Assembly (NCBI GenBank): GCA_041918255.1
Contig: JAYRWD010000026.1
Span: 9,977-73,976, forward strand
Direction of reading: 5' to 3'
DNA: 64,000 bases
DNA from: Candidatus Dojkabacteria bacterium
Lineage (GTDB): Bacteria > Patescibacteriota > Dojkabacteria > B142 > WJKM01
Position 1 is the first letter of the stretch; the number at the start of each line of letters is the position of its first letter. Below, piece after piece: positions 28,515 to 49,137 of the stretch. Under the pieces are notes generated by a model. It was not told the DNA's origin and ran no database searches. It saw nothing but the letters and a program-made list of their open reading frames with translations. The translations under genes and the position numbers were made by a program.

Positions 28515-30632
28515 GTGATTATTATTCGATCCGTTATGTTTCAAAAGAGATTGATAAAGAAAATATTAAAGGTGTGTTGTGTGCTTTTCGTATTAACAGG
28601 GTTTTTTATTGGCATGGGTCCTGTCCGCGGGGAAGGTCAAACAAGGGAATTCTGTGAGAAGGTTAGCGTGGTTGTTAGTACGGATAATGTGGATGAGGAG
28701 CAGAGTGTTATTGAAGTAGATTCAAATTTCATTCCAATTAAGCCTTATAAATTTAAGATACAAGTTAATCCGGATGCGTTTGTTGGGTGGAGTGATGCTG
28801 ATATGGAGATACGGATCGAGACAGATGCTATTTCAAGCTGGAATGACCCAGAACCAAATGATCCAAGTTTTATAATTAATACATATACAGCGAATGCTTT
28901 GTATGCAGAATTTAGTAGCAGATCAATTGAGGAGCTGGGAATGGGGCCATTTGCGTATATGTTAATGGAAAAGGGAACTAAAAAGGAATTTAAAATGAAA
29001 CGCAATAATAATGAAGAATTAGCCGATTGTGGCAAGATTATTGACGTCGTTCCATCTGATTATGTATCTAATAAGTGTAGTGATAGAAATCTTACCGCAG
29101 GTGCTTGGAAAGTTCCAGGATATTTCCAATGTAACTATAATAATGAAGGTTGGGATGTAAACACGTTTTCCACCTGTGATGCACAACAAGTTCGGCCCAC
29201 TGACGAGCTGTGTAGCGCATTGTTTAATGATAAGCTTACCGACGATAATACAGTATTCTGTTCAAAGTGTAAGACTGAAGCGGATTTACCAGGGTATGGT
29301 ACTACTCATCTTTATGGGGAATTGTGCGAACTTGGAGAGGGAAAGTGCGGGTATGATACTGGTTTAGTATGCCGAACTGTTGGATTGCAGAATTTATGTG
29401 TAAATAGTGATAAGCTTTGGGTTCGTGAAGATTGTATAGTTGGGGCAGATGAGTGTGTCGAAAAGGACAATGGGGGTTACACGGTCAAGTGTATTCAAAC
29501 GCAGCCATATACTTCTGTACCTGCTAATCCTTTGCAGCTCGCACAGATTATTGATCCGCCAGCAAGTAATAAATATTATGGAGTTGGGGTTATAGGTTCT
29601 ATGGGAGAATGTAAGTCACTGCAATATTTGGACAAAGTAGGCTGTGACACAGATCCCTACTGCCAAGGAAAAGTTGACGATGGTAATCCAGCAATAGTTG
29701 CATATAACTATGAGCTTGGAAAATGTATAAACAAAACTTATTGTGACTTTGGTTATTCATACGAAGAGTTTCCTAACGAAGAAGATGAAAACGTTCGGGG
29801 GACAGATGGACAAATTAGCATTGGATTAACCAAGGAAACCAAAGATCGGGGATATTCTGGGATTAGTGCAACATTATCTGGATTAGCCGGAAAAGAGATA
29901 AGCAAAGAGGCGGTGGGAAGTTTGAAATTTGAAAATATCCCATATGGTGAGGGTATCAAATATACTCTTAAGGTTAGTATCATTCCCGCTTCGCGGGGCG
30001 CAGGGATGATGGGCGGTTTACTTATTCATTCAAGTGCGCAAGCACCAGTAGTGTGTACCAAAACTAAGAGCATTGAGATGTTAGAAAAATTTAAAATAAT
30101 TGATCTTGAAGTCACAATAGACAAGGATGGAAAATGTACGTTAACGGTTGCCGAAGATTCTAGTTCAATTTCTCCCTCTTCATATGTTTCCAATATTGGC
30201 ATTGAAGGATGTGGTGACAGCCTAAGTTGCATCAATTGTTTAATTAGAAAAGACGCAACAAACTTCGAAAAGTTTACAAGTCTTGAAGAAGCCGTTGCCG
30301 CCAATGCAGGAGGCGAGGATAAAATTTATAGGACCAATAATATTTATACAGCGCTAGGGTGTATCGATCCCAGTGATCAGGGGATTATAGTAAGATTGTT
30401 ACAGATTTCTCTAGGTATAGTAGGAGGAATTACGGGGGCGCGTTTCGGACAGGCGGCTTACAAGTTTGGCAAAGGCGAGCCTGAGTCTACCAAGGAAGCA
30501 TGGGAAATAATCTGGTCCGCAATTTTGAGCCTTCTACTTATTGCATTCTCGGTAGTAGGTTTTCGATTTATCGGAATTAATCTATTCAAATTACTTACTC
30601 CCGGAACAGTAGAGATACCTTCTCCAAAGTAA
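28515..30632 (+). CDS. Large secreted Cys-rich protein that ends in a pilin-like (TrbC/VirB2-topology) paired-TM hairpin.
   Basis: A 705-aa product. An N-terminal signal anchor is followed by about 560 aa with more than 40 Cys, and the C-terminus is IVRLLQISLGIVGGITGARFGQAAY-[loop]-WEIIWSAILSLLLIAFSVVGFRFIGINLF. This has the same topology as the five genes that follow. Confidence 0.6.
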   Translation: MIIIRSVMFQKRLIKKILKVCCVLFVLTGFFIGMGPVRGEGQTREFCEKVSVVVSTDNVDEEQSVIEVDSNFIPIKPYKFKIQVNPDAFVGWSDADMEIRIETDAISSWNDPEPNDPSFIINTYTANALYAEFSSRSIEELGMGPFAYMLMEKGTKKEFKMKRNNNEELADCGKIIDVVPSDYVSNKCSDRNLTAGAWKVPGYFQCNYNNEGWDVNTFSTCDAQQVRPTDELCSALFNDKLTDDNTVFCSKCKTEADLPGYGTTHLYGELCELGEGKCGYDTGLVCRTVGLQNLCVNSDKLWVREDCIVGADECVEKDNGGYTVKCIQTQPYTSVPANPLQLAQIIDPPASNKYYGVGVIGSMGECKSLQYLDKVGCDTDPYCQGKVDDGNPAIVAYNYELGKCINKTYCDFGYSYEEFPNEEDENVRGTDGQISIGLTKETKDRGYSGISATLSGLAGKEISKEAVGSLKFENIPYGEGIKYTLKVSIIPASRGAGMMGGLLIHSSAQAPVVCTKTKSIEMLEKFKIIDLEVTIDKDGKCTLTVAEDSSSISPSSYVSNIGIEGCGDSLSCINCLIRKDATNFEKFTSLEEAVAANAGGEDKIYRTNNIYTALGCIDPSDQGIIVRLLQISLGIVGGITGARFGQAAYKFGKGEPESTKEAWEIIWSAILSLLLIAFSVVGFRFIGINLFKLLTPGTVEIPSPK

Positions 30633-30688
30633 CTGAGCAAAAGAAGGTAAAACAAGGTAAAATATTCATATAAAATATTAGAACTAGA

Positions 30689-31063
30689 GTGATGAGAGTG
30701 GTGCGGACCATAAAATCAAAACTTCTTGCGACAGCTGTTTTCGTCAGCACTTTTTCAATATTTGCTTTGAGGGTCGTACACGCCGTAGCTATTCCAGACC
30801 CAATAGGAAAAGATTTTCTAACCATCTTCAACGATGTCACCGGTCTCATTAAACCAATAACTGTACTTACCTTCCTAGCGACCTTTTTTTATGGTGGATA
30901 TACATGGATGACAGCAGGGGATAGCGAAGATGCGGTAAAAAAGGCCGGGAAAATTCTCACCACGTCAATTATCGGACTGATAATTATATTCCTAGCCCCA
31001 TCCTTAGCCGAACTTGTTGCAAGTTTGCTTGGAGTGAGGCAAATTATTGAATTTCCTAATTAA
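30689..31063 (+). CDS. TrbC/VirB2-like pilin-topology protein (signal peptide plus two TM helices), minimal version.
   Basis: A 124-aa product. It has a roughly 34-aa signal peptide ending AVA, helix 1 ITVLTFLATFFYGGYTWM, a short charged loop, and helix 2 ILTTSIIGLIIIFLAPSLAELVASLL. Confidence 0.6.
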   Translation: MMRVVRTIKSKLLATAVFVSTFSIFALRVVHAVAIPDPIGKDFLTIFNDVTGLIKPITVLTFLATFFYGGYTWMTAGDSEDAVKKAGKILTTSIIGLIIIFLAPSLAELVASLLGVRQIIEFPN

Positions 31064-31065
31064 CG

Positions 31066-31896
31066 ATGATGGATACAAATTTTCTTCGTAGTGCTAAAAC
31101 AATCTTAATTATTTTATGTGTTACTGGAACTGTCTACTTTGTTTCGCAGACCGGATATGTAAAGGCGGAGGGGGAAATATTAGATATCAAATGTGCTAGG
31201 GAAAGGATCCTAAATCCCACCGGTTGTTATGCAAGTGGCGAGAAAGATAGTCCAACAAGCAGTTTTAGTTTTTCGGGTACCGAGGAGAAAGGAGAGTTGG
31301 GGGGTTGTAAGGATCAAGAAAACAGCGAAAAATTTATGTGCGAATTAAATAAATTTTGCACTGGCTCTGGAGAGGAAAAAGATCAAACCTTTGGAAAAGA
31401 CGGATTAAATTACTCGGGGACCACTTTGCGATTCACTCAGGCCAACCTACCCAAGCTGATTAGAATGGCGCTCACAATCATTTTTTCCCTATTAGGCATC
31501 ACTGCACTCTTTATGGCTATTTACGGAATAATGAAATGGTTCTATGCCGTTCGCGGAGGTGGGGACGTTTCAAAGATGACAACATACTTTATGAATGGAA
31601 TATGGGGAGTATTTTTCGCGGCAGGAAGCATAGGCTTTACATATATGTTGTTTTGGGTTTTCGGGTATCGGGATAATATATTTGATTTCGGTGCTGTCTT
31701 TGATGAATTATATAGCGTAGATTGCGAAGCGGTTGTTAGCGAAAACGGAGATCCGGTAGACCCTACGCAAGTGCAAGCATTATGTGATAAATATAACCTT
31801 TCGTGTATGTATGTTCCGGGCAAATGTGTAGAGAGAGTGGCAGATTTCGATAGCTGTACTTCTAAGCCAAAAACAAGCAATATGAGGGTTACATAA
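31066..31896 (+). CDS. Pilin-topology paralog with a Cys-containing N-ectodomain and a Cys-rich C-tail.
   Basis: A 276-aa product with a signal peptide. Its TM hairpin is MALTIIFSLLGITALFMAIYGI / IWGVFFAAGSIGFTYMLFWVF. A Cys-rich tail follows. Confidence 0.55.
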   Translation: MMDTNFLRSAKTILIILCVTGTVYFVSQTGYVKAEGEILDIKCARERILNPTGCYASGEKDSPTSSFSFSGTEEKGELGGCKDQENSEKFMCELNKFCTGSGEEKDQTFGKDGLNYSGTTLRFTQANLPKLIRMALTIIFSLLGITALFMAIYGIMKWFYAVRGGGDVSKMTTYFMNGIWGVFFAAGSIGFTYMLFWVFGYRDNIFDFGAVFDELYSVDCEAVVSENGDPVDPTQVQALCDKYNLSCMYVPGKCVERVADFDSCTSKPKTSNMRVT

Positions 31897-31935
31897 GATA
31901 AGCCTATCCAGAACGTCTATAAATGTTACGCCAAT

Positions 31936-32688
31936 ATGGGTATGAAAAATAAAATATATTTATCATTCGCAACGCTCCTCACACTGTTTTCCTTTGCTAC
32001 GAGGGTAGCAGCTCAGGTTAATATTGATGTCCCAGACGGAAAAACCAAAATTGAGATAGATTATTTCAAACCATCGGCCTTTACAGATTTGATGAAGTTT
32101 GGGGCTTTAGGATTTGTGGGATATATCGCCATTTTCCTTGTTGGCTTTATGTTTATATATATCACCGTCCAAATAGCCATTTCCGCGGGCAAAATTATTC
32201 AAAGCCAAGGAGATTCTGGCAAACTCGAGGAAGGAGTTTCCGAAATCCAAAAATTTATGCGAGGGGTTTTGATAGCAATGTTATTTTTATTGGCATTTGT
32301 GGCGGTTGGAATCTTTATGGGAAGCGGAAATATTATGAAGTGGCCTTCTAAACTCGGACAATGTGGCGGGGGCGGGGTTTTGTTTAACGCAGAATATGAC
32401 GCCTCCCTGAAGAATGAAAAGATCTATGAGAAGGAAACGCAAGTACTATGTTGTAGAAATTTTGAAAGTTTGGACTTTGGGGACGAAAATACCGTCTTGG
32501 TTTCTCCAGTAGGGGGTATTAGAGGATTTAGCAAGGATGGACCTTCAGCAGGAAATCCATTCGCTATAGTCGTGGGAACCGAAACGGACGGAGGCTGGAT
32601 GTTTATCCTACCATCTGCAACAGGAGAATCTAGAGATTTACAATCGACCCAATCTGACCAAGAGAAATATGTTTGTTCGATTTATTAA
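31936..32688 (+). CDS. Pilin-topology paralog
   Basis: A 250-aa product with a signal peptide (…ATRVAAQ). Its TM hairpin is FGALGFVGYIAIFLVGFMFIYITV / VLIAMLFLLAFVAVGIFMG. A C-tail with CGGGG and CC follows. Confidence 0.55.
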   Translation: MGMKNKIYLSFATLLTLFSFATRVAAQVNIDVPDGKTKIEIDYFKPSAFTDLMKFGALGFVGYIAIFLVGFMFIYITVQIAISAGKIIQSQGDSGKLEEGVSEIQKFMRGVLIAMLFLLAFVAVGIFMGSGNIMKWPSKLGQCGGGGVLFNAEYDASLKNEKIYEKETQVLCCRNFESLDFGDENTVLVSPVGGIRGFSKDGPSAGNPFAIVVGTETDGGWMFILPSATGESRDLQSTQSDQEKYVCSIY

Positions 32689-32721
32689 GATTGCAACCTG
32701 AGGAGTTTCTTTGTATTATAT

Positions 32722-33387
32722 TTGAGAAAGCTAAAAATAATTAATATTATTTTAAAAAATATGAAGCAATTTAAAACATTGGCAAAAGTTGGTTTGGGTT
32801 TAGCTCTATCTTTGGCATCAACATATACAGTTGTAGCCGCTCAGTGTGGAGGTTGGTTGCCAGAATTCCTACAGGGGTTTGTGTGCGAGGATCCAGTAAA
32901 CAATTTAACAAACAGGGTGAAAGTGTTTTTCGTACTAGCTTTCGGAGCAGTAATACTAATGGGAGTTGTGTATACAATTTCGGCTGCGTTGAAGTTCATG
33001 CGAAGTAAGGGTGAAAGCGGAGAGATTGAAAATAGCCAAAAAGCAGTCACGGCGATTTTCTACGGAGTTGCTTCGCTTTTTGTTGGAGTGATTGGTATGG
33101 TTGTGGTCACACTATTCTTTTCTCCCACGGTTATTTTCCCTCAGCAAATTTGTATACAAGCCCCGGATAGCTACGGCTGTTTTGCCTGTCGTAATCCTAA
33201 GAAGGGTTCAAATGTTTCTTTCGTAGATATTTGTAATGCATGTAACGATGTGTCCGAGGCACCACTAAGTGATATTAGTGGAAATGTGACGTGTGCTGAT
33301 GATGTTCCCGCGAATATCTCCGATGATGATATAGTTCTAAAGCTTGATGAGGTAAAAACGGTTGGAACGAAAAAAGTTGGGGTCTAG
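32722..33387 (+). CDS. Pilin-topology paralog
   Basis: A 221-aa product with a signal peptide (…VVAAQ) followed by CGGW...C. Its TM hairpin is VFFVLAFGAVILMGVVYTI / AIFYGVASLFVGVIGMVVVTLFF. A Cys-rich tail follows. Confidence 0.55.
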   Translation: MRKLKIINIILKNMKQFKTLAKVGLGLALSLASTYTVVAAQCGGWLPEFLQGFVCEDPVNNLTNRVKVFFVLAFGAVILMGVVYTISAALKFMRSKGESGEIENSQKAVTAIFYGVASLFVGVIGMVVVTLFFSPTVIFPQQICIQAPDSYGCFACRNPKKGSNVSFVDICNACNDVSEAPLSDISGNVTCADDVPANISDDDIVLKLDEVKTVGTKKVGV

Positions 33388-33586
33388 ATTGGAACAGGAT
33401 TATTCAAATCCGCTTTCTTCAAACTGAATAAAAATTGACTTTATGCGATACCCGAAAAAGGCAACAAATGTGTGTCACACTGAGTTCATCGAGGTGCGAC
33501 ACTATCATATTTTTACCCCTCGACGTGCTTCTGCCAGAGGCAGACAGACAGGGTGACATAATAAATGTAGTTTCGTATAAAGTCTA

Positions 33587-34540
33587 ATGAAGTATAAATT
33601 GCTTTCTTTGTTTGCCATTGCTCTGACTGTTAGCACGGTTTTTTTCACCACGCCAGGAATCGCTCTGGTTAGTGCGCAAAGTCAAGAGGAAGTAAATCCG
33701 CTTTTCGATCTCAGTTCAACCGATCCAATCTATATAAATCTCAATTACGACTGTACAAATATTAAGTGGTCGGAAGGTGCGATAGGGATTTATAGAAAAG
33801 TCTATAAGTCCGGGGACAAATATTATGAAGCCAATCCTCGAATAAACGAAATCCAGCAATATCTAAATGGCAAGCCCTATGCCGAGACCTACTTTCTTTT
33901 TGAAGGCGAAACGGGATTGAGTTTAGAAGAGAGTTCTATTAACAAAAATGATTTCAATGCCACGCCATTCAACGAAATAAAGAGGATTGCTCCCTCGCCT
34001 TTTATTATTCCTAGTGATAATCCAGAGCCTATTTTGAAAGAATACGTTGGCATGCCCCTGTGTGATGGTGCCTATTCCTTTAGTGGAAACGATTTTCTTG
34101 CTCCAAATCAAAAGATGAGAGCAAGTCTCGATAATCAGAACGAAAGTTTCGGAGAGCCAAAAAGTTTTGTCCCAGCAAATTTCGTACCCCCTGTATTGCA
34201 GCAAGCGGAAAATTACTTCGTGGAGATAATATACATTTTTTGGAGTATTATTGGACTAGCAGCAGTTGGGCAGTTATTTGTCATAGGTTTGAAAATCCTG
34301 ACATCAAGCTTTAGCCCGGAGCAAAAAGGAGCTACGTTACGCTCGGTAGCATTATGGGTGGTCGGACTGGCATTGGCCATAGTGGCTATTCCACTTTTGC
34401 AATTTATTTTTAGAATTTTGGACATACAAGACACTAGATGCTTCAAATATACTGAGAATAATGAATTAGTTTACGATCTGACCGTTCCGGGTTTCACGTT
34501 CTTCTTTAATGATACATGTACGTCCGAGGAGAGCTTGTAG
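33587..34540 (+). CDS. Pilin-topology paralog with a roughly 170-aa ectodomain.
   Basis: A 317-aa product with a signal peptide (…LVSAQSQ). Its C-terminal hairpin is FVEIIYIFWSIIGLAAVGQLFVIGL / LRSVALWVVGLALAIVAIPLLQFIF. Confidence 0.55.
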   Translation: MKYKLLSLFAIALTVSTVFFTTPGIALVSAQSQEEVNPLFDLSSTDPIYINLNYDCTNIKWSEGAIGIYRKVYKSGDKYYEANPRINEIQQYLNGKPYAETYFLFEGETGLSLEESSINKNDFNATPFNEIKRIAPSPFIIPSDNPEPILKEYVGMPLCDGAYSFSGNDFLAPNQKMRASLDNQNESFGEPKSFVPANFVPPVLQQAENYFVEIIYIFWSIIGLAAVGQLFVIGLKILTSSFSPEQKGATLRSVALWVVGLALAIVAIPLLQFIFRILDIQDTRCFKYTENNELVYDLTVPGFTFFFNDTCTSEESL

Positions 34541-34608
34541 CGAACCTGTCCTTGCCAGAACTTCCCTAAATCCGTGATAATGTGTTTCACTAAATAACCC
34601 AAATTATT

Positions 34609-35769
34609 ATGTTCAAATTCATACATACAGCCGATCTTCACCTTGGGGCGAAGGCAGGATGGCTAGGTACTCGAGCAACAAGCCATAGAAAATTATTATT
34701 AGATACCTTTGCCCAAATTTGTGACGAGACGCGAAATAGGGGGGCAAACGCATTAGTTATAGCAGGGGATCTTTTTGATACCCCATATCCAAGTACTAAT
34801 ACCATAAATTATGTGCAATCTCGTTTAGAGGCATTAGCAAGGGGGGGCACAATGGTTTTAATTGTGGCAGGCAATCACGATCGCTATATTGATTCTTCGG
34901 TATATTCCAAACTGAAATTCTCAAATCCTCTCATCCATGTTTTCTCTCCAGAAAAAGTTGAGGTAATTGAGTCAACGAATTTTGCGGTTAGGTTTTTTTC
35001 GCAGAGTATAGCTCAAAGATTCTCAACATCCTCAACCCTTGGGCGACTCATAGATGCTCGCAAGAATGGTAGGATGGACGGCGGAGGTTTTACAGATATT
35101 GCGATTGTTCACGGATCAGTAGAATTAGGATCGAATACGACCAACCACGGGATATCAAAGGAGGAAATTACAAATTCTGGTTTCGCATATATAGCACTTG
35201 GCGATTGGCACGGATTATTGGAAGTATCAAACAAAGCAACAAAAGCTTGGTATCCAGGCTCACCTCAACCATTGGCTTTTGATCAGAAAATGTTTGGTCA
35301 TGTTCTGGAAATATCGGTCGAGCCCGGTGTAAATGAAAGAGTAGAAGTTATGCCAATTAAGATTTCTGAGTTATTTACACAGGAAGTTACATTTGATTGT
35401 TCAAAACAGGATAACCACCAAGGAGGCGGACAATCTTTATATGAACGTATAGACAGGACTATTACCGGACTATCAAATAAGAATTTGTTACTTGAAATGA
35501 AATTAAGTGGCATCATAAAGCCAGAAATGCCAATTAATTTAGGGGAGATATTGGAGGCCGATACGGATAAATTTTATTTATTACGAATCATAAATCTAAC
35601 GAAGATAGGTTTAACACAGGAAGAGATAGAAGCTATACCCGAGACTACGGTTTCTGGAAGACTAATCAGAATTGCTAAACACAGACTTGAGATCGAAAAA
35701 GACGAGAATGTACGCAAAATTATTGAGCAAGCCTTAGTGGAGGGATTACAAAAATTAAGCGAATTGTAG
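34609..35769 (+). CDS. SbcD/Mre11-family metallophosphoesterase, YhaO(SbcF)-like
   Basis: Calcineurin-like motifs IHTADLHLG, AGDLFD and AGNHDR. It is 386 aa and lies directly upstream of the SMC-like ATPase. Confidence 0.75.
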   Translation: MFKFIHTADLHLGAKAGWLGTRATSHRKLLLDTFAQICDETRNRGANALVIAGDLFDTPYPSTNTINYVQSRLEALARGGTMVLIVAGNHDRYIDSSVYSKLKFSNPLIHVFSPEKVEVIESTNFAVRFFSQSIAQRFSTSSTLGRLIDARKNGRMDGGGFTDIAIVHGSVELGSNTTNHGISKEEITNSGFAYIALGDWHGLLEVSNKATKAWYPGSPQPLAFDQKMFGHVLEISVEPGVNERVEVMPIKISELFTQEVTFDCSKQDNHQGGGQSLYERIDRTITGLSNKNLLLEMKLSGIIKPEMPINLGEILEADTDKFYLLRIINLTKIGLTQEEIEAIPETTVSGRLIRIAKHRLEIEKDENVRKIIEQALVEGLQKLSEL

Positions 35770-35855
35770 AGGATTTTTAGCGCGCCCGAAAACGCAAGCA
35801 TAACGTAACGATTATAATTTTTTATACTTTTTTGCAACACGTTGAAAAATAAATA

Positions 35856-37967: not shown

Positions 37968-38137
37968 TTGTACGTGCACTTATGTTAGTAGGCTTTAGTC
38001 TTTTGTATATAAGCACAGAACAAGAAAATTATTTTGAGACCCAACAAACCTATGAGTAGATCAAAGCTCTTGATTGGAGGATTGCGGAATATATAGGCTG
38101 CTTTTGGTATACTGGAAGCGAATAATATAAGACTTAA

Positions 38138-39883: not shown

Positions 39884-39950
39884 TTGAAGAAGCACGACTT
39901 CGAAGTCACTTGCCAAGTTTGTAAAAAGATAGTAATTTAGGTATATAACA

Positions 39951-42155
39951 ATGCAAATTGATAGAAATAGAATAAAAACTCAGTATTTCGTTGGGGCTTC
40001 TCGTAAGACTCAGTGGTCAAGCGTGTATATATTCTCACCCCATATACCCGCCGTTTATGAAAAGATGGGCGATCTGTTTGCCATTATTACGTTATCGAGC
40101 CCCCCTTCATTTGATTCTAATACCGCAGGAAATCTCTTGATAGACGCACTGCAAGAGGCATATTTTGATGGCCCAAATGAGAATCCATTTGAAGGAATTG
40201 ATTATGCAGTGAAGTCGGCAAAGAAACGTTTAGAGGATCTAATTGAGAGTGATGAAATAATTTCGCAAACTGGAATCGAACTTAGTTTACTATTGGTAGT
40301 TATTCATGAAGAAAAGGCTTATTTAGCCCGCATCGGCGAAGGAGCAATTTTTGGATTCAGAGAGGGCGAAATGGTTGAATTCACTACTAGTTTGAAAGAT
40401 CCCGATGGCAAGGGACATATGAAAACTGCAAGTCTAAGGGTTAGTCCTGGAGATCGATTTGCGATTCTGACTAAAGAAATTCAGCAAAATATTTCAAAAG
40501 ATGAAATTGAAGCAAGTCTCGTGAAGTTTAAGCTAGAGAATATTGAAAATAAAAAGTTTTCAGATGAGGCCTTGAGCGCGATTTTACTTATTGAGGTCGA
40601 GAAAGAGGAGAGGGCAGATATACTAGAGATCAAAGAGTCAATTCAGAATGACAGTGTCAAAGATGAAGATTTCAAAGGGATGTATAGAGAATTTGAAACA
40701 CGAACTTTGAAGGAAAGGGGGGATGAAGAAGCCGAATATAAATTTTTGTCCGCATCAACTTATCATTCTACACCAATATTTATGAGGCTCAGAAGGCAAG
40801 TCAAAGTAGTAATGAATTCTAGATCGTTGGCTAAGGTTATTATATATGGGCGTAATGTCCTCGGGGTACTATTCGGACTATTGGGATCTTTACATCGAAC
40901 CATAAAGTCAAAAGTACTAAAGATACCTCCTAAAGAAATGCTGTATATAAATGATTTGAACAAAGGTGGTAATAAAAGACCAGCAATATTTTTCTTTGTT
41001 TTATCAATTTTATTGATTTACTTTATTATTACAGGAGTTTCGAATTCAAGAGAACGCGCAAAGCTTGCATTTGAGGCTGAGCAAACGATCGTAACATCTG
41101 AAGCTGAACTGACTGAGCTAGAAAATAAAGTAGCCTCTATCATTCTTACCTACGGTAACGAAATAGATAGGGATGCAGCTTTTCGAAAAGTAGACGAGAT
41201 TAAATTAAAATTAGAAGCACTGAAGGTAGAAGAAGTATCTGAGAAACAAAATGCAATTCTAGATAGATTGGAAGAAGTGAATCGTAAGCTTCGTAGGATT
41301 ATTCAGGTCAGAGAAGTTAAAGTGGTCAAAGATTTTGCAGTAATAGAGGGTAGCCAAATAGCTGATATTGATATCGGAGCAGAACAAATTTTTGTGGCCG
41401 ACGGTGGTGATGGCAAAATTTTAGCATTTGATAGGGCAGGTGGGAGTATGAAACAATTAGCCACCGGCTTAAAAGGTCTAATCTCTATAGCATATTCAAA
41501 TCTTGGGCATTTAGCATTTATTGACGGTGATCCTCAAAGAGTTTTAGGTCTTATCAGACTGTCTGATAATATATTGACTCGGGTACCAGGTATCGATGCA
41601 ATTAGGCTCGGCAGGGTAAATGATATCGATGCTTACAAAGTTGGGGAGAACGATAATCGCATTTATGCTGTTCGACCAGAGTCTTCACAAGTTATTCAAA
41701 TGCGTCAATCGGCAGGAGAGTATGTTTTGCCCGAAATTAGACTTGAGAATAAAGATTTGGGGAAAATTTCAGATCTTGAGGTAAGTGACGGGAGGATCTA
41801 CATTCTGTCTCAGGACAAAGGAATTAAGGCTTTTTTTGGAAACGGGGAGGTAGCTTTGAAGCTGTACGGTCTTATGCAACCAGAATTATGGAATTCGGCA
41901 AATAATATATATGTGGATTCAAAATATATATATTTAAGCAATGATTCTATGAAGAGGATTGCGGTTTTCTCAAAATTTAGACCATCGGATGAAGGAGCGG
42001 TGGATTTTATCGCACAGTATGATTTAACCGGATTGCCTCAGAGCGGTAAACTCGGCGAATTGGTTGCCAGTCAACAACAGAGAACTATATATGTCGTACT
42101 CGGAAGTAAGATAGTGAAACTTGATATGTCAGCTATGGAGGAATTCACATACTAG
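39951..42155 (+). CDS. Hypothetical 734-aa single-pass membrane protein: N-terminal cytoplasmic domain, coiled coil, and a C-terminal repeat (beta-propeller-like) domain.
   Basis: A TM helix (PAIFFFVLSILLIYFIITGV) lies mid-protein. The N-domain is faintly PP2C-like (ARIGEGAIFGF), but the DGHGG motif is absent. The C-terminal 300 aa are rich in repeated G/D-containing strands. Confidence 0.4.
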   Translation: MQIDRNRIKTQYFVGASRKTQWSSVYIFSPHIPAVYEKMGDLFAIITLSSPPSFDSNTAGNLLIDALQEAYFDGPNENPFEGIDYAVKSAKKRLEDLIESDEIISQTGIELSLLLVVIHEEKAYLARIGEGAIFGFREGEMVEFTTSLKDPDGKGHMKTASLRVSPGDRFAILTKEIQQNISKDEIEASLVKFKLENIENKKFSDEALSAILLIEVEKEERADILEIKESIQNDSVKDEDFKGMYREFETRTLKERGDEEAEYKFLSASTYHSTPIFMRLRRQVKVVMNSRSLAKVIIYGRNVLGVLFGLLGSLHRTIKSKVLKIPPKEMLYINDLNKGGNKRPAIFFFVLSILLIYFIITGVSNSRERAKLAFEAEQTIVTSEAELTELENKVASIILTYGNEIDRDAAFRKVDEIKLKLEALKVEEVSEKQNAILDRLEEVNRKLRRIIQVREVKVVKDFAVIEGSQIADIDIGAEQIFVADGGDGKILAFDRAGGSMKQLATGLKGLISIAYSNLGHLAFIDGDPQRVLGLIRLSDNILTRVPGIDAIRLGRVNDIDAYKVGENDNRIYAVRPESSQVIQMRQSAGEYVLPEIRLENKDLGKISDLEVSDGRIYILSQDKGIKAFFGNGEVALKLYGLMQPELWNSANNIYVDSKYIYLSNDSMKRIAVFSKFRPSDEGAVDFIAQYDLTGLPQSGKLGELVASQQQRTIYVVLGSKIVKLDMSAMEEFTY

Positions 42156-42179
42156 AAATGATTAAGCGAATTACAGCCA

Positions 42180-42635
42180 ATGGAAAGTAAGCAATACGCA
42201 AAAAATAAAGCCGCGTTTCATGATTATAGAATTATTGAGGAATTTGAAGTAGGTCTTGTTTTACAGGGATGGGAGGTTAAATCTATCCGGGTAGGGGCTG
42301 TCAGTCTTAAAGAAAGTTACATTGCCCCGGTAGGAAAAGAATTATTGATTTATGGAATGAATATTGCAAAGTGGAAGTATACACTTAGGGTAGGGGAACA
42401 GATGGAATTGCGACCGCGCAAATTACTAGTAAATAGAAAGGAAATAGAGCATATTGTCTTTGAGCAAAAAAGAAATGGTGTAACAATCATCCCGCTATCA
42501 ATATACGATCGACGTGGACATATAAAATTGAAAATAGCACTGGGGAAGGGATTACGTAAATATGATAAAAGGGAAGTCGAAAAATCCCGAGAAATCATGA
42601 AAGGGAGTAGGGAAAAACAGGCGGAAAGATGGTAG
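42180..42635 (+). CDS. smpB: SsrA-binding protein SmpB
   Basis: NKAAFHDYRIIEEFEVGLVLQGWEVKSIR, with a basic C-terminal tail. It is 151 aa. Confidence 0.9.
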   Translation: MESKQYAKNKAAFHDYRIIEEFEVGLVLQGWEVKSIRVGAVSLKESYIAPVGKELLIYGMNIAKWKYTLRVGEQMELRPRKLLVNRKEIEHIVFEQKRNGVTIIPLSIYDRRGHIKLKIALGKGLRKYDKREVEKSREIMKGSREKQAERW

Positions 42636-42682
42636 GCACAAGCTATAGCTATGATATAATTTATATCAATTAAGTACAACAA

Positions 42683-43072
42683 GTGTTTAGAAAAAAAATT
42701 GATGAGCAAACAGGTGTGCCATCTCCTGAAATAGCAGGAGGAGCGGTCTCTACTGGTGTCCCTCGAGGTAGTGAGGTACTCACAAACAAAGAGATTCAAT
42801 CCGGAAGTGGGTATAATGAGAAGAAAACAGATACCCAAAAAGAGACTAAGATTCCTCAGTCGCCAACTCAAACGCAGATTAAGACGCAAGGTCCGGCGCA
42901 GACTACGCAAACAGTAGTGCCGAAAGTATGGGGTTACAAAATTTCTCCCTCGTTAGTTTCGAATCTAGGTAAGGTAAGGAGGGGGAAAAGTTCTGCAGAT
43001 CCTAAAACAGGAATTGGTTGCTTGTATATGCTTATCGATAGACTTTTTAGAATGCAGACAGCCTCGGCCTAG
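42683..43072 (+). CDS. Doubtful small ORF encoding a low-complexity T/Q/K-rich product.
   Basis: The 129-aa product is largely compositionally biased (TQKETKIPQSPTQTQIKTQGPAQTTQT). It has no convincing SD and could be non-coding. Confidence 0.2.
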   Translation: MFRKKIDEQTGVPSPEIAGGAVSTGVPRGSEVLTNKEIQSGSGYNEKKTDTQKETKIPQSPTQTQIKTQGPAQTTQTVVPKVWGYKISPSLVSNLGKVRRGKSSADPKTGIGCLYMLIDRLFRMQTASA

Positions 43073-43151
43073 CCTAGAATTTCACCCATTCCCAATACTC
43101 AAAAATATTCATCTAGTGTATTATTAGTATGACCTTTAGTACCAATTTATA

Positions 43152-45623
43152 ATGATTCAAGCTGTCCGCATATTAGCACAAATGGATTTTTTCTCCTTAG
43201 TTATGGACCCTGCGTCATTCGTAGATGAAGCAAGCAATGACCCTTCGTTTCTGATAATGGTTTGCCTTATGGCAATATTGGGTCTTGTAATTTTGATTCT
43301 AGCGTATAAGCTATTTATGAAGGGAGTGATGCATGCTTCTATGGAAAAAAAGTCATTAAGCTCAGTTCTCTTTGAAGTTAGACTTCCGCATACGAATGAG
43401 GTCGAGATACAATCAGCCGATCAAATGCTAACGGGGTTTCTTGGCATTGAAAGAGAACTGAAGGGGCTACAAAAATGGTTTGGTTCGAAATATTATATTA
43501 GTTTTGAAATTGTAGCGTTGCCTGAGACTATAAGATTTTTTGTAAATGTCCCAAAGAAATTAGCGACACTTGTAGAAAAACAAATAAATGGTACTTATCC
43601 TGAGGGTGAAGTAATAAGAACGGATGAATATAATATATTTGGACCTGGGCAGAAGGTAGAATTCTGTTCATTGAAGTTAGCTGAGGATCCGTATAAGCCC
43701 ATCCGGACATATGAAGAGCTTTCGCAAGATGGTTTAAGCAGCATTACCTCCGTTATGAATAAAATGGGTCCTGGTGATGCTATGGCGTTACAGATTGTTA
43801 TTACTCCCTCATCAGGAGAGTGGCGCAAAGATGGTCGAAAATACGTAAATAAAATACGAGAGAATAATTCTGATCCGGAAAAATCAAAGATAGAGGTAGA
43901 AGACGAAATACTTGCTGCAATTGAAAAGAAGGCAGAAAAGCCTGGATTTGAATCAGTTGTGAGGATTGTAAGTGTTTCTACGTTAGGAGAAATAGCTAAA
44001 TCAAATTTGGATAACATGGTTTACGCGTTTGATCAGTTTGCTAATCAAAATGGAAATAGGTTTAAAAAAGTTTCATACAAGAAAAGAAAGGAACAAAGGG
44101 AATTCATGAAGTCCTTTTTGTACAGATTCCCCTCGAAAGCGATGATTTTAAACTCCTCTGAATTAGCTACTATTTTTCACTATCCAAATAGCAAAATTAC
44201 TACTCCGCACATACATTGGCTTACCTCGAAACGTGCTCCAGCAAGTGGAGAAGTCTTATCTCATTTCGAAAATGCAGGGGTATACCTAGGAGTGAATGAA
44301 TATAGGGGCACGAAAAGAAAGATATTCATGCGCTATGACGATAGGCGACGACATTTTTATTATGTTGGTAAAACAGGTTCTGGTAAATCTGTAATGTTGC
44401 AGCATATGGCCTATCAGGATATTTTAAACGGACAGGGATTAGCATTCCTGGATCCTCACGGGGACGCCGTTGAATGGCTTATGGATCGAATACCGGCCGA
44501 ACGTGTCGAGGACATTATTTATTTCAACCCTGCGGATACGGATCGTCCAATAGGTATGAATATCATGGAATGGTATACCGAACATGATAAACACATTATT
44601 GTGAATGGTTTCTTGGGTCTTCTTAATAAATTATTTGATCCTTACAATCAAGGTATTACTGGACCACGTTTCGAGCAGGCCGTAAGGAATGCGATGTTGA
44701 CTGTTATGGCAAAAAAAGGCACTAGCTTGGCTGAAGTGATGACACTTTTACAAAATGACAAGATAGCAGAGAAATACTTTCCATATTTAAACGATGATAT
44801 TGTAAAACGCTATTGGACAGAACAAATAGCCCATACCCAGGAATTTCACAAATCGGAAATTTTAGGATATATAACCTCTAAGTTTGACAGATTTATCACA
44901 AATAAATTGATGCGAAATATTATTGCTCAAAGCAAATCTGGCTTTGATTTCCGTACAGTTATGGATGAAGGCAAGGTTTTATTAATTAACTTATCCAAGG
45001 GATTAATCGGGGAAGAAAACTCACAATTCCTAGGGCTATTATTGATACCCAAAATGTTGCAAGCAGCGATGAGTAGGGCGAATATTGAAGCTGGATCAAG
45101 GCGGGATTTTTATCTATATGTAGACGAGTTCCAGAATTTTGCGACGCCTGATTTTGCTCAAATTCTTTCGGAGGCTCGAAAATACAGGCTTAACCTAATT
45201 GTCGCTAACCAATACATCGCCCAAATGACGGATGAGATCCGTGATGCTGTTTTCGGTAATGCAGGGTCTATAGGTAGTTTCAAAGTGGGAGTGAATGATG
45301 CGCAGTACTTGGCGAATGAATTTGAGCCAGTATTTAATCAAAACGACTTAATCAATTTGGAAAATTTGAATATGTATATCAAGTTACTTGTAAAAGGTGA
45401 ATATCCTCCTCCATTTTCGTTAAAATTAGATACGGATTTGGTCTTCAAAACACCACCGAATAAAGAAATTGGTCAGCTTGTTAGGGAACTATCGCGACTG
45501 AAGTATGGGAAAGACGCAAAGCTGGTCGATGCCGAGATAAAGGCAAGAGAACAAGAAGATGGACCAGGCAATATTGTATCACAACCACCGCCTCCGGCGT
45601 ATAAGCCACCGCTGAGTAGCTAA
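43152..45623 (+). CDS. VirD4/TraG/TraD-family type IV coupling-protein-like P-loop ATPase
   Basis: An N-terminal TM helix. Walker A YYVGKTGSGKS is followed by LDPHGD, which resembles the T4CP DPKGE motif. Walker B is YVDEFQNFA, with GNAGSIGSFKVG beyond it. The product is 823 aa. Confidence 0.55.
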   Translation: MIQAVRILAQMDFFSLVMDPASFVDEASNDPSFLIMVCLMAILGLVILILAYKLFMKGVMHASMEKKSLSSVLFEVRLPHTNEVEIQSADQMLTGFLGIERELKGLQKWFGSKYYISFEIVALPETIRFFVNVPKKLATLVEKQINGTYPEGEVIRTDEYNIFGPGQKVEFCSLKLAEDPYKPIRTYEELSQDGLSSITSVMNKMGPGDAMALQIVITPSSGEWRKDGRKYVNKIRENNSDPEKSKIEVEDEILAAIEKKAEKPGFESVVRIVSVSTLGEIAKSNLDNMVYAFDQFANQNGNRFKKVSYKKRKEQREFMKSFLYRFPSKAMILNSSELATIFHYPNSKITTPHIHWLTSKRAPASGEVLSHFENAGVYLGVNEYRGTKRKIFMRYDDRRRHFYYVGKTGSGKSVMLQHMAYQDILNGQGLAFLDPHGDAVEWLMDRIPAERVEDIIYFNPADTDRPIGMNIMEWYTEHDKHIIVNGFLGLLNKLFDPYNQGITGPRFEQAVRNAMLTVMAKKGTSLAEVMTLLQNDKIAEKYFPYLNDDIVKRYWTEQIAHTQEFHKSEILGYITSKFDRFITNKLMRNIIAQSKSGFDFRTVMDEGKVLLINLSKGLIGEENSQFLGLLLIPKMLQAAMSRANIEAGSRRDFYLYVDEFQNFATPDFAQILSEARKYRLNLIVANQYIAQMTDEIRDAVFGNAGSIGSFKVGVNDAQYLANEFEPVFNQNDLINLENLNMYIKLLVKGEYPPPFSLKLDTDLVFKTPPNKEIGQLVRELSRLKYGKDAKLVDAEIKAREQEDGPGNIVSQPPPPAYKPPLSS

Positions 45624-45901
45624 AAGCTATAGCACAAAGATCTTGAATAGCAAAAAAAACTGTAACATGCATTGTCTGGACCGTTCATTTTGCCTATGTT
45701 TACCTACACCGCCTTAAATATCGGGAGAGTAAGTAATTACATAGCCTAATTACGTGAAAAAACAATCTCCTCTGAAAAATTACCTAGTATATCTAGTTTT
45801 TCATATAAATTTGCAAAGGGTAGTCAGCTTTTTCAAATAGTGCTAATCTATCATTGAAGCTTTTACAAATTATATACATCTAATTTTATTTATTTCTTGC
45901 C

Positions 45902-47347
45902 TTGAAATATTTAAAATATCAATGCGTATTATGTCTGCTAGTTATTTCACTTTGCTTGAGCATAAAGTTAGTGTCGAGGGTTGAAGCCGCTTCTGTTGAT
46001 ATTGATGGGAATGGCGTGCTTACTTATACTGCCGAAGCTGGGGAAACAAATCTTTTGACTTTTGAGCAAAGCAGAGATGATTATATCTTTAGGGAAAGCG
46101 CAATCAATATTTCGGTAGAAAGTGATGACTGTACTGGGGATGGGACAAAGGCAGTCACTTGTGATAATAGTAATGTGGAGAGTATAGAAATTTATCTGGA
46201 GGATGAGAACGATAAAGTCTGGATAGAATCGTTTGAACACGTAGTGACATTAGACCTTGGCAGCGGAAGCGACCAAGCGACATGGTACTTCGATAACAGA
46301 TTCACCCAAGAGGATGGAGAGATAATGGGCGGAGGCGGAGCTGATACTTTGATTGTAGAAGGTGATTCTACAAGCGACGAGTTTGATGTGCTTGAAAGCG
46401 GAGGAAATTTAAGGATCAAGCGAAACGTACCGACCCCGAAAGCGTATTTAGATATAAGCGATTTTGCATATTTAGATATCAAACTTGAAGGAGGGGATGA
46501 TACACTCTCGGTTCTTGGAAATCTAGATGACGTAGAGGATATTTCTTCCATGGAGATTACCATAGAGGGTGGCGAGGGGAATGATGAAATCGATGCCTCT
46601 GATATTGATGATGGGATCTTAGACGATATGAATTTGTTAATATTTGGCGATGAAGGTGACGATCTATTAAATGGTAGTAAAGGGAAAGATTCCATAGATT
46701 GTGGAGAAGGGGATGACCAGTATGAAGATAACGGTGGATTTGATGAAATTGACGATACGTGTAATGAAACAGTGGTGGTCGCAACTGAGCCATTCTCCGA
46801 TATAGATGGAAACATTTTCAAGTCTTACATCGAGTCACTGTATGCAAATGGTATAGTCTCGGGTAGTCAGGGAAGATTTTTTCCAAATGAGTATCTCACA
46901 AGAGGACAATATGCGAAAGTTATATTTTTGGGCTTGGAATTACCCGTTAATGTAGGTTGCGGTGGGTTCCCCGATGTGAATGGAACTGATGTATTTTATA
47001 ATTATATTACCTCTTTGAAATGTCACGGGATTGTGAGTGGCAAAAGCAATGGAACTTATGGGTCTGAGGAACCAATTAGTAGGGGAGCGGCAGCGAAGAT
47101 AGCAGTGGAGGCATTGAAATACAAAAACGCTAATATTTTCTTTACTGATGGTTCTATACAGTTCAACGATTTGAATACTTCAAATCCTTTTTATGGCTAT
47201 ATTATTCTAATTGCTTCAGCAAGGGTTAATGGCGAGGCGATAATGGGGGGTAGTAATGGGAACTTTATGCCGAGTTCATTTATGACCAGAGGGGAAATGG
47301 CAAAAGTAGTGAGCAACACCCGCAGTTATTGGCAAGCTAGCGTGTAA
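45902..47347 (+). CDS. Surface protein with an Asp-rich (Ca-binding-like) region and three C-terminal S-layer-homology (SLH) domains.
   Basis: A signal peptide, a D/G-rich repeat region (GDEGDDLLNGSKGKDSIDCGEGDD), then three repeats of the type FxDIDGNIFKSYIESLYANGIVSGS...FFPNEYLTRGQYAKVI. Confidence 0.65.
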   Translation: MKYLKYQCVLCLLVISLCLSIKLVSRVEAASVDIDGNGVLTYTAEAGETNLLTFEQSRDDYIFRESAINISVESDDCTGDGTKAVTCDNSNVESIEIYLEDENDKVWIESFEHVVTLDLGSGSDQATWYFDNRFTQEDGEIMGGGGADTLIVEGDSTSDEFDVLESGGNLRIKRNVPTPKAYLDISDFAYLDIKLEGGDDTLSVLGNLDDVEDISSMEITIEGGEGNDEIDASDIDDGILDDMNLLIFGDEGDDLLNGSKGKDSIDCGEGDDQYEDNGGFDEIDDTCNETVVVATEPFSDIDGNIFKSYIESLYANGIVSGSQGRFFPNEYLTRGQYAKVIFLGLELPVNVGCGGFPDVNGTDVFYNYITSLKCHGIVSGKSNGTYGSEEPISRGAAAKIAVEALKYKNANIFFTDGSIQFNDLNTSNPFYGYIILIASARVNGEAIMGGSNGNFMPSSFMTRGEMAKVVSNTRSYWQASV

Positions 47348-47421
47348 TGCTCCAGGGTGGACTCGAACCACCGACCCCCGCTTTATAAGAACGATGCTCT
47401 AACCGACTGAGCTACTGGAGC
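47348..47421 (-). tRNA. tRNA-Ile (anticodon UAU)
   Basis: Minus-strand sequence GCTCCAG-TA-GCTC-AGTCGGTTA-GAGC-A-TCGTT-CTTATAA-AGCGG-GGGTC-GGTGG-TTCGAGT-CCACC-CTGGAGC-A. All stems pair, with two G-U wobbles in the anticodon stem, and CCA is not encoded. Its 3' end abuts the SLH gene stop. Confidence 0.8.
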
Positions 47422-47582: not shown

Positions 47583-48461
47583 CTATAGGGAGGCGGTTTT
47601 GCTGGAATTTAAATTTCGTTTTGTTTTTACCATCTCTAGATACTTTTCAGTGCTGGTAATACGTTTGTGACCTACTATTTCCGCGATTTGTTCAAGTGGT
47701 ACACCGTGTTCCAGCTGGAAGACAATGAAAGTATTTCGTATATCATTGACAGTTGCGTCATCTATACCGGATTTTTTGAACGTATTATTGATAGTTGTAC
47801 GGATATTCCTAATCAATACTTGCTTTCCAGATTTGGTGGTAAATAAGTAGCCTTCGTCATCTTGCGGACGGGGGCGAATTTTGAGATATTTTCTGATAGC
47901 TTCTACGCACGTCTCGTTTAGGATTATAGTTCGGGCCGGATTGCTCGCATAGGATTCGATGGTAGCGGTTGGGACTTTGGCATCAAGCTCGAGCTGGGAA
48001 ATTTTTAACCTGGACAATTCGCCGATCCGCATGCCTGTTTGCAATAAAACTTCTACCATGGCGTAAAGCCTTGGGCTTGATCTAGCCGTATCCCGGAGTG
48101 CTTTATATTCTAGACTATTGAGAATTCGTCTCTGTTTAGTTTCAAACTTTGGATGCACTATACCTTCTGCAATATTGGCGTTTACATGATTTTCGGAGTG
48201 CAAAAATTTGAACAAAGTCCGAAAACTGTTAATTTTTCTAGAAATTGTTTTTAAGGTGAATTTCTGCTCGGTTACCAGCTCTTGGATATATAACTCTAGA
48301 TGGTTTGTTTTGTAATCTGATAATAGAGAAATTTCGTTTTTGTATCTGCCAAATAATTGCTCGATATCCTTCTTGTAGGCTATGATAGTTGAGGGAGAAC
48401 GTTTTTTTTCTTTAAGATTGGCAATAAAGAGTTCTAGAGCTTGAGAATGTGGAATTGACAT
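47583..48461 (-). CDS. Tyrosine site-specific recombinase (XerC/XerD or integrase family)
   Basis: An N-terminal SAM-like core-binding domain. The C-terminal catalytic region is IRNTFIVFQLEHGVPLEQIAEIVGHKRITSTEKYLEM, with the nucleophile Tyr in KYLEM. It is 292 aa. Confidence 0.75.
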   Translation of the reverse strand: MSIPHSQALELFIANLKEKKRSPSTIIAYKKDIEQLFGRYKNEISLLSDYKTNHLELYIQELVTEQKFTLKTISRKINSFRTLFKFLHSENHVNANIAEGIVHPKFETKQRRILNSLEYKALRDTARSSPRLYAMVEVLLQTGMRIGELSRLKISQLELDAKVPTATIESYASNPARTIILNETCVEAIRKYLKIRPRPQDDEGYLFTTKSGKQVLIRNIRTTINNTFKKSGIDDATVNDIRNTFIVFQLEHGVPLEQIAEIVGHKRITSTEKYLEMVKTKRNLNSSKTASL

Positions 48462-48612
48462 AGCCGAAATTGTTAATATACATAAAGCGATAAATAGAGG
48501 ATATCGTGTATTCTACAATGAAACAGATGAATTTTATCAATATTATGCAAAAAAGGCAATACTACGGGACATATTATGAATTTATGTTAGCCAGTTTAGC
48601 TTTTAGTACGAT

Positions 48613-49065: not shown

Positions 49066-49137
<72 letters not shown>

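Follow-up and report, generated by a model that had tools for sequence, protein, structure and literature searches.

The block at positions 28515-47421 of the window, the 64-kb stretch of Candidatus Dojkabacteria DNA analysed here, encodes an array of VirB2-like pilins, an SbcD/YhaN-like nuclease pair, a SpoIID/LytB-family wall hydrolase, a membrane-anchored propeller protein, a VirD4/VirB4-like ATPase and an SLH surface protein. All genes listed by a previous sequence-only reading were present, and their identities were borne out by profile searches. That reading had combined them into one envelope-spanning translocation machine. With a probability of roughly 60%, we read the block instead as a composite stretch of chromosome close to the replication origin (oriC), consisting of four modules with different distributions, and not as one dedicated machine. 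Because the modules differ in distribution, the one-machine parts list is a juxtaposition specific to this lineage. Module A (28515-34540 and 38138-42635) would unite the pilins and the propeller protein with the coiled-coil SpoIID hydrolase (SpoIID-cc), SmpB being carried along as a passenger. Module B (42683-45623, joined by Xer and DivIC at 47583-49038) would be an orphan hexameric DUF8128 ATPase with a small upstream partner, module C (34609-37967) a YhaO/YhaN-type, membrane-tethered SbcCD-like pair for the repair of DNA ends, and module D (45902-47421) a genome-specific SLH surface protein and tRNA-Ile. The linked parts are the pilins, SpoIID-cc, a bPH protein and the NHL-propeller protein, whereas the nuclease pair, the SLH protein and the tRNA are passengers. 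This split guards against mistaking a lineage-specific juxtaposition for a new secretion machine, and it leaves the linked set as candidates that can be tested for roles in pilus-associated wall remodelling and in host sensing.

The linkage within module A was traced in 161 related loci, including 81 centred on the ATPase (up to 10 kb of flank) and 80 metagenome loci centred on SpoIID-cc. The latter contained 58 SpoIID-cc orthologues, and 32 loci had enough upstream sequence to be informative. VirB2-like pilins (1-10 genes) were located no more than three genes upstream of SpoIID-cc in 22/32 informative loci, always on the divergent strand, and the adjacency was found in 14 of the 19 informative lineages obtained by de-replication at 60% identity. 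Downstream of SpoIID-cc, the order was fixed: first the bPH protein (in 30 loci), next a membrane protein of 77 aa (in 18), then the propeller protein (in 22, three genes downstream) and finally SmpB (in 14). Among these proteins, most were closest to Levyibacteria-labelled sequences; two were Dojkabacteria-like. In four Dojkabacteria loci (L051, L052, L058 and L064), the pilin array is followed by SpoIID-cc, a bPH-domain membrane protein, a two-helix transmembrane protein of ~86 aa and the propeller protein, and then by SmpB, a small open reading frame (ORF), the ATPase, Xer and DivIC. The cluster of module A thus occurs in Dojkabacteria and also in many Microgenomatia. In the latter, array and SpoIID diverge, whereas in the former they are co-directional; therefore, the pilin-SpoIID adjacency outlived an inversion. 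The linkage of the pilin array, the SpoIID hydrolase and the 734-aa propeller protein, which the sequence-only reading had assumed, is thus kept across diverged lineages. Meanwhile, the VirD4/VirB4-like ATPase was found in 0/80 SpoIID-centred loci within the available flanks. No published work joining SpoIID with Patescibacteria or the Candidate Phyla Radiation (CPR) was found, nor was a description of the pilin/SpoIID/propeller linkage in the searchable literature.

Two further gene families were seen at the distal end of Microgenomatia pilin arrays (for example, L118:670-4481, - strand), both without Pfam matches. The product of one is secreted, has 754 aa and 23 cysteines and, by inspection, carries an SLT-like motif at its C-terminus; the product of the other, of 503 aa and with ~10 transmembrane helices, is possibly VirB6-like. 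The two families have members in 7 and 3 of the loci L084-L163, respectively, and no homologues in the window. Additionally, a ComFC-like gene (double zinc ribbon and phosphoribosyltransferase domain) lies 5-9 genes downstream of SpoIID-cc in 16 loci (e.g., L112:12494-13192); the window block has none.

The six genes of the array, all on the + strand, encode VirB2-type pilins. The clearest is a canonical VirB2-like type IV secretion system (T4SS) pilin of 124 aa (30689-31063), which scored 44.2 bits against Pfam T4SS_pilin (PF18895; E = 2e-11, cut-off 26.6) and matched TrbC/VirB2 (E = 1e-4) and a Dojkabacteria pilin hidden Markov model (HMM; E = 5e-38). The first gene of the array (28515-30632) encodes a large secreted protein of 705 aa with 28 cysteines, a signal peptide and a C-terminal VirB2-like hairpin (transmembrane helices at 624-642 and 665-683), matched by the pilin HMM at residues 647-687 (E = 3e-3). 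It is possibly a tip or adhesin subunit. In most related arrays, as in the window, the promoter-proximal gene is the largest. The other four are pilin-like paralogues of 276 aa (31066-31896; signal peptide, hairpin and cysteine-rich extensions; HMM E = 1e-3, residues 125-182), 250 aa (31936-32688; hairpin 64-128; E = 2e-4), 221 aa (32722-33387; hairpin 62-133; E = 2e-6) and 317 aa (33587-34540; N-terminal ectodomain; E = 7e-10, residues 201-283). The last one also gave a weak Pfam T4SS_pilin match (E = 9e-3) and has an orthologue in L001, one of the related loci. A signal peptide and a transmembrane hairpin, the two hydrophobic helices typical of VirB2-type pilins, were predicted in 6/6 array proteins, and 6/6 matched the Dojkabacteria HMM at the hairpin (E from 5e-38 to 3e-3), whereas the best non-array protein of the window reached 0.18. 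The proposal that these hairpin proteins are pilins is therefore supported.

SpoIID-cc (38138-39883, + strand) is a membrane-anchored coiled-coil peptidoglycan hydrolase of 581 aa belonging to the SpoIID/LytB family (TIGR02669: 115.4 bits, cut-off 83.3, E = 4e-33). It consists of a transmembrane helix (13-31), a coiled coil and the SpoIID/LytB domain, which aligns with the SpoIID structures 4rwr and 5i1t. As in other SpoIID/LytB lytic transglycosylases, the E-x-P and AQA-x-A-x-RTY motifs are present, and E343, P345, E368, Q373, R378 and Y380, covering the conserved catalytic glutamate region, are invariant among 10 orthologues. Unlike in the solved family members, the order of segments appears permuted. 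The domain (residues 254-505) looks circularly permuted, with the GHGVGMSQ-GA segment (282-319) ahead of the AQAIAFRTY catalytic-region segment (366-434); in 4rwr the former is C-terminal (residues 284-321). The family consensus has the same segment order as SpoIID-cc. Unlike SpoIID itself, the gene has no sporulation context and keeps pilin genes as linked neighbours. FtsEX-regulated division hydrolases are built from a coiled coil and a hydrolase domain in one chain, and SpoIID-cc shares with PcsB, EnvC and CwlO the membrane anchor, the long coiled coil and the hydrolase domain; unlike for these proteins, FtsEX is not encoded nearby. The hydrolase had been assigned a VirB1-like role. Functional analogy is possible, but VirB1-type hydrolases carry SLT and/or CHAP domains, and SpoIID-cc belongs to a different family.

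The 734-aa protein (39951-42155, + strand), originally described only as a single-pass membrane protein, indeed has one transmembrane helix (345-363), to which the profile search added an extracellular 6-bladed NHL/YWTD beta-propeller. A conserved cytoplasmic N-domain is followed by the helix, a coiled-coil stalk and the C-terminal propeller. Its profile matched LRP2 YWTD propellers in the PDB (best E = 2e-25), Pizza proteins (2.6e-21 and weaker) and the PknD sensor domain (1.5e-13, chain 1rwi). The family comprises 355 representative clusters, and NHL repeats were found in 16/50 members. The Mycobacterium tuberculosis PknD is likewise single-pass with an extracellular 6-bladed NHL-type propeller, but in place of the kinase the window protein has a conserved cytoplasmic domain to which no fold was assigned. 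PP2C_2 was rejected for this N-domain, since the match was below cut-off and occurred in 1/50 members. A single-sequence AlphaFold2 (AF2) model had a predicted local distance difference test score (pLDDT) of 38, too low for use, and a word-index homologue search with the family alignment returned only a fragment of the same protein. The next gene encodes SmpB, the housekeeping trans-translation factor (42180-42635, + strand; Pfam SmpB E = 1e-42). SmpB comes after the propeller protein in both Dojkabacteria and Microgenomatia loci and is a syntenic passenger of the pilin/SpoIID/propeller cluster.

Most plausibly, module A serves a T4SS-type pilus at the cell surface. While gene identities, protein architectures and synteny counts were observed directly, we infer its assembly pathway, enzyme role and sensing function as follows. 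The pilins would be exported by Sec and inserted as hairpins, and a VirB4-based system from another part of the genome would polymerise them into a T4SS-type pilus. SpoIID-cc, on a coiled-coil stalk of ~200 residues, would open the peptidoglycan locally and allow the filament to cross the wall, acting as a glycan-strand hydrolase that does a VirB1-like job from a different enzyme family. The propeller protein might be an outside-in sensor or a docking partner, and the module B ATPase could be a substrate receptor for a dispersed T4SS or be exapted to another role.

A large part of bacterial diversity is patescibacterial, and these organisms live on other cells. The sole genetically tested species requires its T4SS and VirB2-like pilins for epibiotic growth. 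The closest known system is the patescibacterial MPF-FATA-like T4SS (Southlakia epibionticum locus; Quinonero-Coronel et al. 2025, PMC12102498; review PMC12857230). According to this survey, the T4SS genes of Patescibacteria are located close to dnaA, VirB2 genes occur in arrays of 2-11, and 148 of 5,713 coupling-protein homologues are near virB4, with exaptation raised as a possibility (PMC12102498). Both pilin arrays and orphan coupling-protein homologues were thus known in Patescibacteria before. The window resembles these systems in its six sequence-divergent PF18895/VirB2-like pilins near dnaA/oriC, in having no relaxase, and in a coupling-protein homologue apart from virB4. It differs in that no VirB4, VirB3, VirB6, VirB8 or TrsD was found in the 64 kb, that its hydrolase is a coiled-coil SpoIID and not of the SLT/CHAP VirB1 type, and that SpoIID-cc and its bPH and NHL-propeller partners are unmentioned in the searched parts of the survey (PMC12102498). 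Pfam scans of window ORFs of at least 110 aa gave no VirB4 or VirB6 family matches, as the sequence-only reading had noted, and no match for VirB3 or VirB8; an HMM of the Microgenomatia 10-transmembrane array-distal protein had no match in the window either. The only related ATPase scores as VirD4/TraG by sequence; with no VirB4-family ATPase in the locus, the block is not a complete T4SS. Nor is it a competence machine: window ORFs matched no ComEC, ComEA, ComG-type type IV pilin or relaxase family in the Pfam scans, and the pilins belong to the VirB2 type and not to the type IV pilins. In Table S1 of the survey, the Dojkabacteria genomes seen are scored VirB4-positive, suggesting that VirB4 is probably encoded elsewhere than in the window (PMC12102498).

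The ATPase of module B (823 aa; 43152-45623, + strand) is a VirD4/VirB4-like membrane ATPase of the DUF8128 family. T4SS-DNA_transf (24.0, cut-off 20.1) and TraG-D_C (23.4, cut-off 22) both scored above their Pfam gathering thresholds, as in VirD4/TrwB and VirB4, and Walker A (GKTGSGKS) and Walker B (VDEF) were invariant among 15 homologues. In an AlphaFold2 model (pLDDT 77.6), the nucleotide-binding domain bears a helical insertion resembling the all-alpha domain of VirD4/TrwB, and the N-terminal membrane anchor is also shared. Unlike VirD4/TrwB, the protein has one predicted transmembrane helix, not two, and between anchor and ATPase domain lies a cytoplasmic alpha/beta DUF8128 domain of ~300 residues. 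Foldseek placed R388 TrwK/VirB4 at the top (E = 2e-16), aligning this two-domain protein over the full length with a template modelling score (TM-score) of only ~0.3, and TrwB next (E = 7e-12; TM-score on target 0.63-0.68). On the modelled fold, the 823-aa protein is best placed in the VirD4/VirB4 clade and not with FtsK-like proteins. An FtsK analogue, an idea arising from the Xer/DivIC synteny, was rejected since the fold is nearer to VirB4, TrwB and HerA than to FtsK, and is kept as a minor possibility; a tblastn search with the Escherichia coli FtsK motor had no match in 2.2 Mb of related loci.

The claim of a VirD4/TraG-like coupling ATPase therefore holds for sequence and fold, but not for the genetic association with a T4SS or relaxase. 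Neither VirB4 nor a relaxase is near the gene, and pilin genes were found within 10 kb of the ATPase in 6/82 loci, all Dojkabacteria-type. This agrees with the small share of coupling-protein homologues near virB4 (148/5,713) in the survey (PMC12102498). The ATPase occurs in at least 599 species-level genomes at 37-56% identity, including Dojkabacteria, many Microgenomatia lineages, WWE3 and Doudnabacteria. In Microgenomatia and Dojkabacteria, the gene belongs to the vertically inherited core and keeps a conserved neighbourhood of its own. Unlike VirD4 and VirB4, it usually has Xer and DivIC as neighbours and not T4SS genes. Xer was located within five genes downstream in 30/59 informative loci (convergent in 29) and DivIC nearby in 25/59. 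In the window, these are an Xer-type tyrosine recombinase (47583-48461, - strand; Phage_integrase and SAM_1 domains), matching the XerA, XerD and XerC models at E = 1e-37 to 3e-33, all below their cut-offs, and a DivIC/FtsB-type division protein (48613-49038, + strand; Pfam DivIC E = 7e-10). The ATPase/Xer/DivIC(FtsB) synteny is shared by Dojkabacteria and many Microgenomatia; L007 has a PBP2/FtsI-like gene between its ATPase and Xer genes. Upstream of the ATPase in Microgenomatia, NrdR, ribonucleotide reductase and an adenosyltransferase-like gene were seen by inspection. The conserved orphan DUF8128 ATPase with its Xer/DivIC neighbours is a separate puzzle.

Directly upstream of the ATPase, the window encodes a small, largely disordered protein of 129 aa (42683-43072, + strand), the C-terminal part of which is conserved in L001, L002 and L003. 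A small same-strand ORF ends less than 150 bp ahead of the ATPase gene in 47/73 loci, and its product may be a conserved partner of the ATPase. These upstream proteins have 80-200 aa and are mostly disordered, several ending by eye in a hydrophobic-basic helix. A longer antisense ORF at 42350-42910 is probably spurious.

The nuclease pair consists of an SbcD/Mre11-type (YhaO-like) phosphoesterase of 386 aa (34609-35769, + strand; Metallophos E = 5e-9; SbcD and Mre11 NCBIfam models match under their cut-offs) and a YhaN-type SMC/Rad50-like ATPase of 703 aa (35856-37967, + strand; SMC_N, AAA_23 and AAA_27). It follows the plan of Bacillus subtilis YhaO/YhaN (SbcE/SbcF) and of SbcCD/Mre11-Rad50, in which a calcineurin-like phosphoesterase gene precedes one for an SMC-head ATPase that has a long coiled coil; Metallophos, SMC_N and AAA_23 all scored above cut-off. 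As in B. subtilis YhaN, the 703-aa ATPase has the AAA_27 signature (PF13514; 44.4 bits, cut-off 22). It differs from SbcC/Rad50 in being much shorter, in that the SbcD and Rad50 equivalog models score far under cut-off for the pair, and in its apex, where two central transmembrane helices (residues 343-383) take the place of the CxxC zinc hook; the protein has two cysteines in all and no CxxC motif. PF13514 was present in 34/34 homologues found (full-length identity 22-30%), the two genes are kept as a unit among homologous pairs, and the central hairpin is kept across the ~700-aa subfamily, including a diderm non-CPR genome. These features place the 703-aa ATPase in the short, hairpin-bearing YhaN subfamily.

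Unlike YhaO/YhaN and SbcCD, the window pair sits between a pilin array and a wall hydrolase, and only in this sub-lineage (the window, L001 and L009). Within the available flanks, the 80 SpoIID-centred loci gave no SbcD match and a single weak SMC match. The pair reads as a sub-lineage-specific insertion, most likely one that processes DNA ends for repair; a defence-like role seems less likely. Among homologous pairs elsewhere, one adjoins a UvrD/PD-(D/E)XK helicase-nuclease gene, and others lie among unrelated genes. Compared with L001, the closest relative, the pair and the propeller protein are 30-34% identical (30% for the YhaN-like ATPase), whereas the VirD4/VirB4-like ATPase is 71%, Xer 64% and SpoIID 54% identical, indicating very uneven evolutionary rates inside the block.

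Module D begins with a secreted acidic-repeat protein of 481 aa (45902-47347, + strand) with three C-terminal SLH wall-anchor domains (SLH E = 3e-21). No homologue was found in 81 ATPase-centred loci (0/81), and in L001 and L051 Xer directly follows the ATPase with no SLH gene between. The next feature is tRNA-Ile(UAU) (47348-47421, - strand; ARAGORN; Rfam 68.5 bits), the 3' end of which abuts the SLH stop codon; the block does end at this tRNA, as first described. Both features occur at this position in this genome only. The UAU anticodon is an uncommon bacterial way of reading AUA; a CAU-anticodon tRNA was found at 49066-49138, 1.6 kb away.

A tyrosine recombinase, the Xer-type gene described above, does lie on the far side of the tRNA, and a search for an att-like repeat had been suggested. 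No repeat of the tRNA-Ile 3' end was found in the 64-kb window besides the tRNA itself (25-mer with up to 3 mismatches; 16-mer with up to 2 mismatches). A tRNA-integrated island was rejected, given the lack of an att-like repeat, the even GC content of the window (0.38-0.42) and the synteny of Xer with the ATPase in 30/59 loci across classes. The recombinase is no island-specific integrase, and the block is not patchily present as a whole; its core is conserved in Dojkabacteria. This upholds the view of the sequence-only reading that the block is chromosomal, and the tRNA and recombinase do not mark the edge of an island.

The close homologues of the ATPase carry Dojkabacteria names, in line with the source lineage, Candidatus Dojkabacteria (CPR/Patescibacteria); the nearest relative by ATPase is contig WJKM01000011.1 (assembly GCA_014729085.1; 71% identity). 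In the window, dnaA and dnaN are located at 20.4-23.2 kb (- strand), the cumulative GC-skew minimum at ~22 kb, and the sole perfect DnaA box, TTATCCACA, in the intergenic region upstream of dnaA (23245-23253). The probable replication origin therefore lies within 20435-23720. The block begins ~5 kb to its right and spans 5-24 kb from oriC, and right of the origin ~23/29 genes are on the + strand (counted from the ORF list). All 14 ORFs of the block (14/14) are on the + strand, as claimed, and the tRNA on the - strand closes it. Because the block lies near one side of oriC, this same-strand run is expected from replication co-orientation and is no evidence for an operon. Since rnpA is 26 kb from the origin region (49205-49591), the block is situated between dnaA and rnpA.

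Several points weigh against the composite reading and its pilus module. The SpoIID module has no adjacent pilins in ~1/4 to 1/3 of informative lineages, so that its role might be a general one in the cell wall. The ATPase adjoins the SpoIID module in two ways, following it in Dojkabacteria but preceding it in four Levyibacteria loci; this is a hint of a functional link of module A with module B, to which the composite reading gives little weight. Promoter-like and terminator-like sites were detected at chance frequency only. Additionally, the placement of VirB4 elsewhere in this genome is only probable, by analogy with the Dojkabacteria genomes scored in the survey.

Among the alternatives, the best surviving is a division and cell-wall neighbourhood, which we consider unlikely. 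Here, SpoIID-cc (PcsB/EnvC/CwlO-like), the propeller protein, the ATPase, Xer and DivIC would serve septal remodelling and chromosome resolution, the ATPase being a member of the FtsK/HerA superfamily and the pilin array an unrelated neighbour kept by ancestral synteny. The ATPase/Xer/DivIC synteny across Microgenomatia fits this view, as do the PBP2/FtsI-like transpeptidase after the ATPase in L007, FtsH close by in many loci, UppS and mevalonate-pathway genes flanking the cluster, the coiled-coil hydrolase layout, and the SpoIID module without adjacent pilins in 10/32 loci and in four Levyibacteria loci. However, pilin arrays adjoin SpoIID-cc in most de-replicated lineages (14/19) despite the change of orientation, and no FtsE or FtsX was found in the window.

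A wider reading takes the pilins, SpoIID-cc, the bPH protein and the propeller protein as a conserved surface-filament and wall-breaching module of Microgenomatia and Dojkabacteria, encoded apart from VirB4. In this Dojkabacteria sub-lineage, the module would have recruited the membrane-tethered SbcCD-like nuclease and, lying beside the orphan ATPase, would give jointly with them a host-directed nucleic-acid acquisition apparatus. Taken as a whole, this is quite unlikely.

We regard as very unlikely the proposal of the sequence-only reading that all parts form one envelope-spanning T4SS- or competence-type machine for DNA or protein translocation, with the pilins as filament, SpoIID as wall breach, the ATPase as motor, the SbcD/YhaN pair as membrane-tethered DNA-end processor and the SLH protein as anchor, serving, for instance, the import and processing of nucleic acids from the host. 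The genes are contiguous on a single strand; L001 and L009 show the same order of pilins, nuclease pair, SpoIID, propeller and ATPase; the SMC-like ATPase is anchored in the membrane; the 823-aa ATPase is truly VirD4/VirB4-like; and pairs drawn from the pilins, the SpoIID module and the ATPase stand side by side in different lineages. Moreover, Patescibacteria depend on nucleic acids from their hosts, and tubes resembling a T4SS were observed at the interface with the host (bioRxiv 10.64898/2026.06.21.733656). On the other hand, the nuclease pair is missing from the same cluster in L051, L052, L058 and L064 and, apart from one weak SMC match, was not found in the available flanks of the SpoIID-centred loci, and its homologues elsewhere occur in repair or unrelated settings, including a diderm genome. 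The SLH gene at this position is confined to this genome, the ATPase and pilins are unlinked in most genomes, and VirB4, VirB6, ComEC and a relaxase were not found in the window. Replication co-orientation accounts for the same-strand layout, and phylogenetic profiles are, as indicated so far, uncorrelated. What stood of the one-machine claim is the linked set of pilins, SpoIID and the 734-aa protein; the nuclease pair and the SLH/tRNA unit proved to be local.

Equally improbable is that the nuclease pair is an accessory defence-like SMC-nuclease module in a permissive site and not a repair system. Its fast divergence (30-34% identity to L001 against 71% for the neighbouring ATPase), its patchy distribution (34 homologues found) and its insertion in one lineage would suit such a module, and PADLOC reported LmuB (the Lamassu SMC; E = 4e-18, residues 220-692) and the N-terminal regions of GajA and PtuA. 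These matches reflect generic ABC/SMC-head likeness, however. The YhaN AAA_27 signature is found in the family, the other subunit, an Mre11/SbcD-type phosphoesterase, has no PADLOC match and is not a known Lamassu effector, and the UvrD/PD-(D/E)XK helicase-nuclease beside one homologous pair is a repair setting. A defence-system reading of the 823-aa ATPase and the SMC protein together was rejected, since the PADLOC matches show generic P-loop and SMC likeness.

In the window as a whole, an Rfam scan identified four tRNAs and nothing else. Outside the block, a giant protein of 2345 aa (54672-61709) combines an N-terminal response-regulator receiver match, scored under the Pfam cut-off, with right-handed beta-helix/NosD repeats and, at the C-terminus, a CarboxypepD_reg-like domain. 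Other beta-helix proteins are encoded at 50132-51508 and possibly at 62112-63470.

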